In this document: positions 1-4,237 of the stretch, one piece after another
Position numbering within the stretch: the first letter of the stretch is position 1
Layout: the number at the start of each line of letters is the position of its first letter
NCBI RefSeq assembly: GCF_055900595.2
Contig: NZ_CM148325.1
DNA length: 64,000 nt
Direction: 5' to 3' (one strand)
Translations under genes and position numbers: made by a program
The notes under the pieces: model-generated
Databases searched by the model: none
Told to the model about the DNA's origin: nothing
Seen by the model: the letters and a program-made list of their open reading frames with translations, nothing else

Positions 1-2
1 TG

Positions 3-302
3 GCGCAATATATGGCACAAGGTGCCTGTATGGCGCTGGAAGATGCAGTAACGCTGGGTAAGGCGCTGGCGCAGTGTGAGGGTGATGCGGCGCAAGCTTT
101 TGCGCTGTATGAGTCGGTACGTATTCCGCGTACCGCGCGCATCGTCTGGTCGACCCGTGAAATGGGGCGGGTTTATCACGCCGCAGGGGTAGAACGTCAG
201 GTACGTAATCTGCTGTGGAAAGGGAAATCGCAGGCAGAGTTTTATCGCGGCATGGAGTGGCTGTACGGCTGGAAAGAAGATAACTGTCTGCAACCACGCT
301 GA
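3..302 (+). CDS. FAD-dependent aromatic-ring monooxygenase (salicylate/3-hydroxybenzoate hydroxylase-like), C-terminal part; 5-prime end outside window
   Basis: Open frame runs from the window edge to TGA at 300-302; the GxGxxxALEDA-type motif near the C-terminus is typical of flavoprotein hydroxylases. Not the gene expected next to dusC from K-12 synteny. Confidence 0.55.
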   Translation, partial: AQYMAQGACMALEDAVTLGKALAQCEGDAAQAFALYESVRIPRTARIVWSTREMGRVYHAAGVERQVRNLLWKGKSQAEFYRGMEWLYGWKEDNCLQPR

Positions 303-420
303 GTACTTCTTACCCAATCAGGTGCACGGACGGTCCCCTCGCCCCTTTGGGGAGAGGGTTAGGGTGAGGGGAAAAATCTTGCCCGAATTAATCAGTAAGT
401 CAGTTTGTCTGCAAACACCA

Positions 421-447
421 GAGGCGCTAACATAGCGCCTCATTTTT
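421..447 (+). terminator. Rho-independent terminator downstream of the monooxygenase gene
   Basis: Perfect 9-bp stem gaggcgcta/tagcgcctc with 3-nt loop, followed by ATTTTT. Confidence 0.6.
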
Positions 448-1160
448 GTGCACAGAAAACCCCCAGCTAGGCTGGGGGTTCCGGAAAGCTTTCAGCTTTG
501 AGCCAGTTATTAAAACCCCTTTTGATTTGTTAAAACACCTTGCGGTCTGGCAACTGCAAGTGTCAAACAAGAAATCAAAAGGGGGTCCCAATGGGGGACG
601 AAAAGAGCTTAGCGCACACCCGCTGGAACTGTAAATATCACATAGTTTTTGCGCCGAAATACCGAAGACTGGCGTTTTACGGAGAGAAGCGTAGGGCGAT
701 AGGCAGTATTTTGAGAAAGCTGTGTGAGTGGAAAAGCGTACGGATTCTGGAAGCAGAGTGCTGCGCAGATCATATCCATATGCTTGTGGAAATCCCACCC
801 AAAATGAGCGTATCCGGCTTTATGGGATATCTGAAAGGGAAAAGCAGTCTGATGCTTTACGAGCAGTTTGGGGATTTGAAATTCAAATACAGAAACAGGG
901 AGTTCTGGTGCCGAGGGTACTATGTCGATACGGTGGGTAAGAACACGGCGAAGATACAGGACTACATAAAGCACCAGCTTGAAGAGGATAAAATGGGGGA
1001 GCAGTTATCGATTCCATATCCGGGCAGCCCGTTTACGGGCCGTAAGTAACGAAGTTGAATGCAAATGTCAGATCGTATGCGCCTGTTAGGGCACGGCTGG
1101 TAACAGAGCCTTACAGGCGCATTTGAAAAACCTCCGGCTATGCCGGAGGATATTTATTTT
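445..1160 (+). mobile_element. IS200 insertion sequence (IS200/IS605 family), ends approximate
   Basis: 152-aa TnpA ORF; perfect left-end hairpin cccccagc-tag-gctggggg at about 460-478; stem-loop around the start codon (RBS sequestration); right-end hairpins at about 1088-1149. Length about 710 bp matches IS200. Exact ends not determinable by eye. Confidence 0.65.
591..1049 (+). CDS. tnpA: IS200 transposase TnpA (Y1 HUH transposase)
   Basis: 152 aa, MGDEKSLAHTRWNCKYHIVF... with the HxH motif (HIHMLVEIPP) and catalytic Tyr region; matches the IS200 TnpA I remember. ORF-track 540..1049 trimmed to the ATG at 591. Confidence 0.9.
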   Translation: MGDEKSLAHTRWNCKYHIVFAPKYRRLAFYGEKRRAIGSILRKLCEWKSVRILEAECCADHIHMLVEIPPKMSVSGFMGYLKGKSSLMLYEQFGDLKFKYRNREFWCRGYYVDTVGKNTAKIQDYIKHQLEEDKMGEQLSIPYPGSPFTGRK

Positions 1161-1173
1161 TGCGGGTGATGAT

Positions 1174-2121
1174 ATGCGTGTGTTACTGGCACCGATGGAG
1201 GGTGTACTCGACTCTCTGGTGCGTGAATTGCTGACCGAAGTTAACGACTACGATCTGTGCATCACCGAGTTTGTCCGCGTGGTGGATCAACTGCTGCCGG
1301 TAAAAGTTTTTCATCGCATTTGCCCGGAGCTACAAAACGCCAGCCGAACGCCATCCGGTACGCTGGTGCGCGTGCAATTGCTGGGGCAGTTCCCACAATG
1401 GCTGGCAGAGAACGCCGCCCGTGCGGTGGAGTTAGGTTCCTGGGGTGTGGATCTTAATTGCGGCTGTCCGTCGAAAACGGTTAACGGTAGCGGCGGCGGG
1501 GCGACACTACTCAAAGATCCTGAACTCATCTACCAGGGTGCAAAAGCGATGCGTGAAGTTGTACCGGCGCATTTGCCCGTCAGTGTGAAAGTGCGTCTGG
1601 GCTGGGACAGCGGTGAGAAGAAATTTGAAATCGCCGATGCGGTTCAACAGGCTGGCGCTACGGAGTTGGTGGTGCATGGGCGGACAAAAGAGCAGGGGTA
1701 CCGCGCGGAGCATATTGACTGGCAGGCGATTGGCGAGATTCGCCAACGGCTGAATATTCCGGTGATTGCCAACGGTGAAATCTGGGACTGGCAGAGCGCG
1801 CAACAGTGTATGGCGATCAGCGGCTGTGACGCGGTGATGATTGGTCGCGGAGCGCTCAATATTCCCAATCTGAGCCGAGTGGTAAAATATAACGAACCGC
1901 GAATGCCGTGGCCGGAGGTGGTTGCTTTGCTACAAAAATATACCCGTCTGGAAAAGCAGGGCGATACTGGGTTATATCACGTTGCGCGGATTAAACAGTG
2001 GTTGAGTTATTTGCGTAAAGAATACGATGAAGCAACGGAATTATTTCAGCATGTTCGGGTGTTGAATAATTCCCTTGATATTGCAAGGGCTATTCAGACC
2101 ATTGATATCGAGAAACTCTAA
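1174..2121 (+). CDS. dusC: tRNA-dihydrouridine(16) synthase DusC
   Basis: 315 aa from [13 protein letters not shown]..., TIM-barrel Dus family; ORF-track start trimmed from 1123 to the conserved N-terminus. Confidence 0.9.
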
Positions 2122-2185
2122 GAAACCATAGTGATGTTTTTTGACAATGTGTTAGCTCTTTATCAATAGGCCGCACGGTTGTTTG

Positions 2186-2374
2186 GTGGCGTCAAAATCG
2201 CCGAGGCGTTCCCTGAAGGCCGGGGCAGCCCATATGGATGTGGGCTGAGGGCGCGTTTTACAGGGATGTTACCTCGCGCCCGACCCGGTAGCCGTAAGGG
2301 ATAAGCCGAGGGCACCGCGCAGCGGCGATTTTGTTCGCCAGAGCCCGGGGGTGCAGGGGGCGGCGGCGACTGGT
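2186..2374. repeat. GC-rich multi-hairpin intergenic element with terminal inverted repeats (unclassified)
   Basis: Ends ggcgtcaaaatcgccg (about 2187) and cggcgattttgttcgcc (about 2324) are near-perfect inverted repeats; internal perfect hairpins cagccca/tgggctg and gggcgcg/cgcgccc; additional hairpin gggggcg...cgccccc at about 2356-2384. No ORF. Confidence 0.3.
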
Positions 2375-2493
2375 CGCCCCCTGCGCGCTCCTTGCGCTAG
2401 TGATTATATGAAGCAATGCACATGACAGGAGCGCAACAGGATGAGAGACTGAAATATTCTCGTTATTTTCGGATCTGATGACGTTAATTAATT

Positions 2494-2577
2494 TTAAAAT
2501 ATCATCTTAAATACGCCAGTCACCACCAGTAGTCCAATCAGGAAAATAATCAATACAGCCCAGAGTATAATTTTCAT
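2494..2577 (-). CDS. yohP: Small membrane protein YohP (27 aa)
   Basis: Minus-strand ORF MKIILWAVLIIFLIGLLVVTGVFKMIF with an AAGGA RBS about 8 nt upstream; matches the K-12 small protein as I remember it. Below the ORF-track size cutoff. Confidence 0.6.
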   Translation of the reverse strand: MKIILWAVLIIFLIGLLVVTGVFKMIF

Positions 2578-2800
2578 TGGCGTTCCTTTATTTGTGAGTG
2601 TCGAATAAGTATAGGAAAAAACGAAGCCCTTTGCCGTTACTCATAAGTGATTAAGATAAATCGGAGAATATCATTCACTTACTGTATATTTTTCTGAATA
2701 TGTCGTTTTATTGCCACTGATGTATTGCCACGCGAAACTAAAAAATATATTGCATCACACGGTAATCTCCGCGCACCTTTTCTTACCTGACTATTCCTCC

Positions 2801-4237
2801 ATGAATCGTGATTCCTTTTACCCAGCCATCGCCTGTTTTCCTCTGTTACTGATGCTGGCCGGGTGTGCGCCTATGCATGAAACCCGCCAGGCGTTAAGCC
2901 AGCAAACACCCGCTGCGCAAGTTGACACCGCATTACCTACGGCGCTGAAAAATGGTTGGCCAGACAGCCAATGGTGGCTGGAGTATCACGATAATCAACT
3001 CACTTCATTAATTAACTATGCACTGCAGAACGCACCGGATATGCAGGTGGCTGAACAGCGCATTCAGCTGGCTGAAGCCCAGGCGAAGGCAGTTGCCACT
3101 CAGGATGGCCCTCAGATCGATTTTTCTGCGGATATGGAGCGGCAAAAAATGTCGGCAGAAGGGCTAATGGGGCCGTTTGCTCTGAACGATCCTGCCGCAG
3201 GTACGACCGGTCCGTGGTACACCAACGGTACTTTTGGCTTAACGGCGGGCTGGCATCTCGATATCTGGGGAAAGAATCGGGCGGAGGTAACTGCTCGCCT
3301 GGGTACGGTTAAAGCACGAGCGGCGGAACGCGAGCAAACCCGCCAATTGCTGGCTGGCAGCGTTGCCCGCCTTTACTGGGAGTGGCAAACCCAGGCAGCG
3401 TTAAACACTGTTTTGCAGCAAATCGAAAAAGAGCAGAACACCATTATCGCGACCGATCGCCAGCTATATCAGAACGGGATTACTTCTTCAGTTGAAGGTG
3501 TGGAAACCGATATTAATGCCAGCAAGACCCGGCAGCAGCTCAACGATGTCGTGGGAAAAATGAAAATTATTGAGGCACGGTTAAGCGCACTTACAAATCA
3601 CCAGATAAAGTCATTGAAGCTTAAACCGGTTGAGTTGCCGAAAGTGGCAAGTCAGCTTCCTGATGAACTGGGGTATTCATTGCTGGCACGGCGGGCAGAT
3701 TTGCAGGCAGCGCATTGGTACGTTGAGTCATCGTTAAGCACCATTGATGCGGCAAAAGCGGCATTTTACCCTGACATCAACCTGATGGCCTTCCTGCAAC
3801 AGGATGCGTTGCACTTAAGCGATTTGTTCCGTCATTCCGCGCAGCAAATGGGCGTTACGGCAGGCCTGACGCTACCCATTTTCGATAGTGGTCGTCTTAA
3901 CGCCAACCTCGATATTGCAAAAGCCGAAAGCAACTTGTCTATCGCCAGCTACAACAAAGCGGTGGTTGAAGCGGTGAATGACGTGGCGCGGGCAGCCAGT
4001 CAGGTTCAGACGCTGGTGGAGAAAAACCAGCATCAGGCGCAAATTGAGCGCGATGCCTTGCGTGTGGTAGGTCTTGCGCAGGCCCGCTTTAACGCGGGTA
4101 TCATTGCTGGTTCCCGCGTCAGCGAAGCCAGGATCCCGGCGCTGCGTGAGCGGGCCAATGGCCTGTTATTGCAAGGGCAGTGGCTGGATGCCTCCATTCA
4201 ACTCACTGGTGCGTTGGGCGGGGGGTACAAACGCTGA
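2801..4237 (+). CDS. mdtQ: Outer-membrane efflux lipoprotein (NodT/OMF family), intact
   Basis: 478 aa from MNRDSFYPAIACFPLLLMLAGCAP (lipobox LAGC); ORF-track start 2711 is an upstream TTG extension. K-12 mdtQ (yohG) is a pseudogene by my recollection; here the frame is open. Confidence 0.8.
   Translation: MNRDSFYPAIACFPLLLMLAGCAPMHETRQALSQQTPAAQVDTALPTALKNGWPDSQWWLEYHDNQLTSLINYALQNAPDMQVAEQRIQLAEAQAKAVATQDGPQIDFSADMERQKMSAEGLMGPFALNDPAAGTTGPWYTNGTFGLTAGWHLDIWGKNRAEVTARLGTVKARAAEREQTRQLLAGSVARLYWEWQTQAALNTVLQQIEKEQNTIIATDRQLYQNGITSSVEGVETDINASKTRQQLNDVVGKMKIIEARLSALTNHQIKSLKLKPVELPKVASQLPDELGYSLLARRADLQAAHWYVESSLSTIDAAKAAFYPDINLMAFLQQDALHLSDLFRHSAQQMGVTAGLTLPIFDSGRLNANLDIAKAESNLSIASYNKAVVEAVNDVARAASQVQTLVEKNQHQAQIERDALRVVGLAQARFNAGIIAGSRVSEARIPALRERANGLLLQGQWLDASIQLTGALGGGYKR

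Follow-up and report, generated by a model that had tools for sequence, protein, structure and literature searches.

One question raised by the intergenic DNA upstream of dusC is whether a guanine-rich tract with the potential to fold into a G-quadruplex (G4) and a copy of IS200 lying a short distance downstream of it are functionally connected, or whether they are neighbours by chance. The locus lies at the beginning of a stretch of 64,000 nucleotides of contig NZ_CM148325.1 (assembly GCF_055900595.2), which is referred to here as the window. A reading made from the sequence alone had drawn attention to the tract and to its proximity to IS200, and had proposed that G4 or hairpin structures could be targets for single-stranded DNA transposases of this family. 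In this analysis we find that the stretch at 320-375 is very probably an ordinary copy of the BoxC repeat, that IS200 inserted independently of it at the adjacent terminator so that their proximity is coincidental, and that the persistence of the repeat is likely neutral or selfish.

Locus and identity of the repeat

The ORF list and the terminator scan agree with the sequence-only reading in placing the tract between the stop codon of the 3-hydroxybenzoate 6-monooxygenase gene and the terminator (see the table). BoxC thus belongs to the 3' untranslated region of this gene, the G-rich strand being the sense one. Some 45 nt separate it from the right edge of the island in which it lies, a strain-variable group of 3-hydroxybenzoate/gentisate genes found in 351 of 5426 complete E. 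coli genomes. Homology to the island-less strains restarts at about position 417, just 5' of the terminator, and the DNA fold of the latter has a free energy of -10.5 kcal/mol (z -5.4). The IS200 copy that follows has 99.9% identical counterparts in E. coli. Its right end lies 15 nt upstream of the dusC start, such that the element together with its right-end hairpin (1131-1149) parts dusC from its native upstream region.

Table. Coordinates of the features at the locus (positions of the window)
Feature	Position	Strand	Basis
3-hydroxybenzoate 6-monooxygenase gene, 3' end; stop codon 300-302	12..302	+	ORF; annotation in matching genomes
BoxC repeat unit (PIT element / TMECO type 'A mm' / HPG1 motif), about 56 nt	320..375	+	multi-locus matches and alignment
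BoxC C-rich arm (pyrimidine block), CCCCTCGCCCC	335..345	+	sequence
G-tract GGGGAGAGGGTTAGGGTGAGGGG, canonical G4 motif with four G-runs and three 3-nt loops; contains HPG1 21-mer GGGAGAGGGTTAGGGTGAGGG	349..371	+	
BoxC G block 1, Watson-Crick partner of the C-arm in the published triplex model (Holder 2015)	349..358	+	
BoxC G block 2, reverse-Hoogsteen third strand in the published triplex model (Holder 2015)	362..371	+	
Intrinsic terminator: 9-bp hairpin 421-441, then ATTTTT (T-run 443-447)	421..447	+	terminator scan
IS200, ends uncertain by about 3 nt owing to the T-run	448..1159	+	empty-site comparison; ends compared over 14 sites
IS200 art200/STnc490 region	458-581		Rfam STnc490, 146 bits
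IS200 tnpA	591-1049	+	
dusC, tRNA-dihydrouridine(16) synthase, ATG at 1174	1174..2121	+	ORF and homologous genomes

The G-tract comprises the runs GGGG, GGG, GGG and GGGG separated by the loops AGA, TTA and TGA. It is connected to the C-arm by a TTT spacer (346-348) and is directly followed by the first A of an A-run at position 372. The number of G-runs is accordingly four and not five, as had been counted from the letters; in other respects the initial description holds. The loops are of 3 nt, the 23-mer obeys the canonical G3+N1-7 rule and scores 2.26 in G4Hunter, and the preceding C-rich arm is indeed partly complementary to the tract, 9 of the 10 positions pairing with the first G block with one G/A mismatch. 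G4 prediction on both strands finds no other canonical G3+N1-7 motif in the 64-kb window, nor any other 25-nt stretch with a G4Hunter score of at least 2.0; the 23-mer is single-copy in the window at up to three mismatches and occurs in none of 100 shuffles. As far as the sequence can tell, the G4 potential of the tract is genuine.

Whatever this potential, the tract has a family. With a 161-nt query over the site, matches are obtained in 5134 of 5426 complete E. coli genomes, with a median of 8 places in each and never more than 14, the whole locus including BoxC being matched in 351 of these genomes; a 76-nt query delimits the part common to other E. coli loci to the approximately 56 nt of the repeat unit. 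Eight other copies were retrieved, from between yihR and yihS, recA and recX, pstB and pstA, tldD and aaeR, cpxA and yiiM, yraQ and dolP, zntA and tusA, and lptG and yjgR. All eight are intergenic, between annotated coding sequences, and none adjoins IS200. In an alignment of the nine loci conservation extends from about 325 to 373, with an invariant G-tract, a nearly invariant C-arm and unrelated flanks. The 36-mer at 336-371 (CCCTCGCCCCTTTGGGGAGAGGGTTAGGGTGAGGGG) is identical over all 36 nt to TMECO nos 7, 11 and 15 (type A mm) in Table 1 of Holder 2015 (PMC4666352), and positions 350-370 are the exact HPG1 21-mer of Kaplan 2016 (PMC5100583).

These names denote a repeat which, according to Holder 2015, was noted as BoxC in the 1990s and became the PIT element in 2000; TMECO is the name given to it by the authors themselves, who cite earlier work by Maher and colleagues, list 23 copies in K-12 in their Table 1 and catalogue 63 loci across 56 strains (PMC4666352). 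The HPG1 family, with the core GGGAGAGGGTTAGGGTGAGGG, was found independently by Kaplan 2016; K-12 contains 52 canonical G4 motifs, of which 16 belong to this family and 23 are BoxC copies (PMC5100583). The copies lie on either strand and in either orientation with respect to the neighbouring genes, including between divergent genes, and at inconsistent distances from them (PMC5100583, PMC4666352). The tract is therefore already known: the publications of 2015-2016, which extend descriptions from the 1990s and 2000, cover the motif, its capacity for G4, hairpin and triplex folds, the number of its copies and their intergenic distribution.

Compared with the BoxC/PIT/TMECO family, the window copy shows no difference of substance. 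It has the same core of one C-rich and two G-rich blocks, 34-37 nt long in the published consensus, the same intergenic position and dispersed multi-copy distribution, and shares both the TTA second loop, which defines type A, and the G mismatch in the C-arm ('mm'); being located in an island absent from K-12, it falls outside the 23 K-12 copies. With the HPG1 motif, described as a 'G-quadruplex-hairpin-duplex switch', it has in common the exact 21-mer, the upstream complementary arm and a position between ORFs near the 3' end of a gene; the switch function itself is a proposal, and the circular dichroism (CD) was performed on HPG2, which has a CC/CCG loop, and not on HPG1 (PMC5100583). The REP/BIME elements of enterobacteria are, like BoxC, short, GC-rich, imperfectly palindromic, intergenic and dispersed, often in 3' untranslated regions, but the two sequence families are unrelated and the literature lists BoxC as a separate repeat class (PMC4666352). 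Unlike REP/BIME, BoxC possesses a third G block, from which its triplex and G4 potential derives. REPs are linked to the RAYT transposases, which are IS200/IS605-like; to our knowledge there is no mobilising enzyme for BoxC.

Some further observations concern the surroundings of the repeat and its numbers. The E. coli strains best matching the locus (e.g. NZ_CP098223.1 and NZ_CM128605.1) contain only 1-2 BoxC places detectable by megablast against the median of 8, so that BoxC copy number varies strongly between lineages; NZ_CP098223.1 carries 17 IS200 places. A 41-aa ORF (MRRYVSASGVCRQTDLLINSGKIFPLTLTLSPKGRGDRPCT; 318-443, minus strand) crosses BoxC; it could be mis-called as a gene, but almost certainly exists only as a side effect of the repeat. 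An Rfam scan of positions 1-3000 at E<=1 returned nothing at BoxC, the only matches being STnc490/art200 inside IS200 and a sub-threshold match to AgvB on the minus strand at 2411-2471, whose 22.9 bits (E 0.26) fall short of the gathering score of 56. Between dusC and yohP/mdtQ the DNA is GC-rich and unannotated (2160-2475), with a G4Hunter peak of 1.8 at 2345-2373.

Folding of the element in DNA and RNA

The folding computations agree with a competition between alternative folds. In them the DNA hairpin formed by the C-arm and G block 1 has a free energy of -8.9 kcal/mol (z -1.9). The C-arm can also pair with 362-371 via one G-T/U wobble, and it is the 'mismatch' G at 341 that lets it pair with either G block, at the price of one G/A mismatch in the one case and of one wobble in the other. 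This dual pairing through G341 may explain why 'A mm' is the commonest type. For DNA, the computed values are -8.9 to -10.1 kcal/mol for the hairpin against -12.6 kcal/mol for the G4, using the G4 term of ViennaRNA in a model which does not encompass triplexes. For RNA, the order is reversed, with about -21 (to -25) kcal/mol for the hairpin against -12.6 kcal/mol for the G4, and the pairing preferred by RNAfold is that of the C-arm with the distal G block via one G-U wobble. The fold of the whole 3' untranslated region has a z of -2.7.

Experimental data are available for published oligonucleotides identical or nearly identical to the window copy, from which the structural statements on this locus are transferred. 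In Holder 2015 the 1H-NMR spectrum of the full-length oligonucleotide displayed 18 imino signals, which were read as an intrastrand triplex and not as a G4; the type A mm oligonucleotide, for which CD was published as well, had a Tm of 74 C, addition of the complementary strand yielded a duplex, and in vivo DMS footprinting gave no protection of the triplex guanines and hence no support for a stable non-duplex structure (PMC4666352). Kaplan 2016, by contrast, inferred from the CD of HPG2 a K+-dependent G4-like state in competition with a hairpin of similar stability, although here too the duplex alone formed when the complement was present (PMC5100583). Since the literature is in conflict, with NMR read as triplex and the CD of HPG2 read as G4, the G4 folding of BoxC is unsettled. 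The best available evidence suggests that the full element would be a duplex in vivo, and that as a single strand it would prefer a hairpin or triplex.

On these grounds the behaviour of the element can be envisaged as follows. In double-stranded DNA, BoxC would be a plain duplex. Were the G-rich strand to become single-stranded, the C-arm and the first G block would pair in a hairpin, and the second G block could then be accommodated in the hairpin groove, generating a purine-motif intrastrand triplex. A three-tetrad G4 would offer another fold, one to be favoured solely where the C-arm is unavailable. In the mRNA, BoxC is predicted to form a strong hairpin of about -21 kcal/mol, which would lie 5' of the terminator. 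An element of this kind requires no function specific to the locus, and would most likely persist as a neutral or selfish structured sequence.

IS200 at the terminator upstream of dusC

Within the 64-kb window BoxC (searched as type A and as type B, with up to 2-3 mismatches) and IS200 each occur once, and the evidence on their association comes from other genomes. The G-tract of BoxC ends 76 nt before the left end of IS200, so the tract is close to the insertion point, as the sequence-only reading had noted, but the sequence that actually abuts IS200 is the T-run of the terminator and not BoxC. In strain 2013C-4282 the same locus occurs without IS200 and reads ...GAGGCGCTAACATAGCGCCTCATTTTTTTGCGGGTGATGATATG(dusC), the match ending at the terminator. 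In the empty site the same terminator hairpin is followed by 7 T, and hence both hairpin and T-run pre-exist the insertion, by which the T-run was split into 5 T on the left and 2 T on the right. The repeat was already in the monooxygenase 3' untranslated region before the arrival of IS200, and it is retained in all 351 island-bearing matches. The BoxC-IS200 junction of the window was not found in any genome of the collection of 5426 E. coli genomes, including these 351.

The terminator 421-447 is the real insertion site of IS200 at this locus. At all 14 IS200 sites compared, the left end of the element (GTGCACAGAAAACCCCC...) lies directly 3' of a GC-rich hairpin and T-run resembling an intrinsic terminator. 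A fixed hairpin plus T-run rule is positive at 13 of the 14 sites (12 distinct loci) as against 0.23% of all window positions, and at the fourteenth an imperfect stem is visible by eye. This pattern suggests that IS200 targets the 3' side of terminators. As with other members of the IS200/IS605 family, such as IS608 and ISDra2, insertion occurs without duplication and with the relevant sequence or structure immediately 5' of the left end. The target of IS608 is TTAC and that of ISDra2 a pentanucleotide; IS200, unlike these, abuts a terminator-like hairpin with its T-run, which is neither BoxC nor a G4. An explicit statement that IS200 inserts at terminators outside itself was not found in the literature. 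Sequences resembling terminators are, according to a 2025 preprint, present upstream of ISs and most pronounced for IS200/IS605, but part of this signal may come from the terminator inside the IS200 left end. Of the original proposal that a hairpin or G4 is the target of the single-strand transposase, the hairpin component is thus reasonable, but it concerns the terminator and not BoxC.

The terminator upstream of dusC is also a recurrent IS200 site, occupied in island-less strains too. Two strains devoid of both island and BoxC (L010, L011) carry IS200 at this same terminator, and up to 148 genomes match the terminator/IS200 junction upstream of dusC. The split of the T-run differs, with 6 T on the left in L010 and 5 T plus 2 T in L011 and the window, which could reflect either independent insertions or homopolymer slippage.

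The converse expectation, that BoxC motifs should recur in the flanks of other IS200 copies, was not borne out. In the 400 bp to the left and right of 13 other IS200 sites (11 further loci), no BoxC-like motif was present. For the whole collection we used chimeric queries consisting of BoxC, 200 nt of an IS200 end and the reverse complement of BoxC, which join BoxC of either orientation within about 650 bp; with the left and right IS200 ends, these gave 0 joined places in 5426 genomes containing about 10,000 IS200 places. In a positive control with the 5' end of dusC in place of IS200, two-piece joined places were obtained and ranked first, so the design detects adjacency where it is present. 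A cut-off of at least 80% of the query proved slightly too strict, only 15 island genomes passing it in the control because BoxC matches are often shorter than 56 nt, and ranking was used instead. Being conducted by megablast, the test covers type-A copies that are well conserved, whose median number in a genome is 8 as against 23 motifs of all types in K-12, and degenerate or type-B copies beside IS200 would escape it. Independently, Holder 2015 describes BoxC as lacking association with transposons, phages or plasmids (PMC4666352).

It is against these data that the notion of the BoxC G4 or hairpin as a structural target drawing the IS200 transposase to this site has to be judged. The distance of 76 nt, the fact that the family acts on single-stranded DNA and recognises hairpins, and the report of more rearrangement around BoxC loci (Holder 2015, PMC4666352) speak for it. 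Yet BoxC does not abut the insertion, it does not recur at other IS200 copies at either the scale of 13 sites or that of 5426 genomes, occupancy of the terminator is independent of it, as the strains without BoxC demonstrate, and the published survey likewise saw no transposon association (PMC4666352). We consider such a role extremely improbable. The sequence-only reading had itself stated that the idea would fall if the motif proved to be part of a common intergenic repeat not associated with IS200 sites, and this is the situation encountered, BoxC being present in 5134 of 5426 genomes and the tests with IS200 being negative. IS200 inserted independently into the terminator T-run, and its proximity to BoxC is therefore coincidental.

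Possible functions and the spread of the family

If BoxC did not attract IS200, could it still serve the locus in some other way? Following the proposal of Kaplan 2016 for HPG1/HPG2, the tract could act as a functional G-quadruplex/hairpin/duplex switch which modulates the monooxygenase 3' end or read-through into dusC. Such a function would be in keeping with the canonical motif and its G4Hunter score of 2.26, the strongest of the window, with the identity to HPG1, with the dependence of the HPG2 CD spectra on K+ versus Li+/Mg2+ (PMC5100583), and with the invariance of the G-tract in nine E. coli loci and its exact copies in many phyla. Nevertheless, we regard it as quite unlikely at this locus, given that the NMR of the full oligonucleotide indicates a triplex and not a G4 (PMC4666352), that only duplex is seen with the complementary strand (PMC4666352, PMC5100583) and no DMS protection in vivo (PMC4666352), and that in the transcript the predicted hairpin (-21 kcal/mol) would outcompete the G4 (-12.6). 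In addition, the distance and orientation of BoxC relative to genes are inconsistent (PMC5100583, PMC4666352), and PIT elements, in earlier work as cited by Holder 2015, neither acted as promoters or terminators nor affected RNA polymerase (PMC4666352).

The predicted strength of the RNA hairpin, which weakens the case for a switch, leads to another possibility, namely that BoxC forms a stable stem-loop shielding the monooxygenase mRNA. There is a precedent in REP elements, which protect mRNA from 3'-to-5' exonucleases. The placement of BoxC 3' of the stop codon and 5' of the terminator, its G-rich strand being sense, the modelled hairpin of -21 to -25 kcal/mol together with the z of -2.7 for the 3' untranslated region, and the occurrence of many BoxC copies just downstream of genes would all be compatible with such a REP-like role. 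The terminator hairpin, however, already supplies structure at the 3' end, and BoxC copies occur in both orientations, including between divergent genes, while RNA of the C-rich strand folds more weakly; a stabilising role is in our view unlikely. Equally unlikely, we think, is the suggestion, derived from the proposal of Holder 2015, that BoxC is a hot spot of recombination or instability which marks the island edge and contributed to the variability of the junction. The repeat does lie about 45 nt inside the right boundary between island and core, with homology restarting at about 417, the island occurs in only 351 of 5426 genomes, and TMECO loci were more rearranged than controls (Holder 2015, PMC4666352). 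But this is a single locus, of which the right boundary alone falls inside the window, and the correlation gives no direction: repeats may simply build up in dispensable, variable intergenic DNA, and BoxC is kept in all 351 island-bearing matches. The location near the island edge agrees with the tie of BoxC to variable regions noted in Holder 2015 (PMC4666352).

An ordinary repeat, present before IS200 and persisting without a function specific to the locus, is hence the reading we prefer, 'neutral or selfish' being its default component. The distribution of the family outside E. coli adds a qualification. Among species-representative genomes the exact 23-mer occurs in at least 120 stretches, Alpha-, Beta-, Gamma- and Deltaproteobacteria as well as Firmicutes MAGs being represented among the matches listed. 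In these (L023-L142), a CCCCTC(G/T)CCCC arm and a variable loop lie 5' of the 23-mer almost without exception, and the flanks are lineage-specific. Pseudomonas sp. dw_612 contains at least 29 copies, in which the 23-mer makes up the 3' portion of a lineage-specific repeat of greater length (TCAGGTCGATGTAGCTC...CTCGGTCAGT-core). This wide distribution agrees with the report of Holder 2015 of the motif in more than 260 genomes (PMC4666352). The exact conservation of the core across phyla hints at a constraint for which the neutral or selfish reading does not account. The core might conceivably be the recognition module of a widespread protein that mobilises or binds it, in the way that RAYTs recognise REPs. 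We hold this to be highly unlikely; if true, BoxC would be a cross-phylum non-autonomous mobile element.

For the interpretation of the tract itself the consequences are mainly cautionary. Its value as a discovery is small and its practical value negative, in the sense that intergenic G4-motif hits in E. coli are to a large extent BoxC copies (23 of the 52 canonical motifs in K-12), which should be recognised as such before any local interpretation is attempted. The neighbouring IS200, in turn, should be attributed to a preference of the element for terminator hairpins and not to the presence of BoxC.
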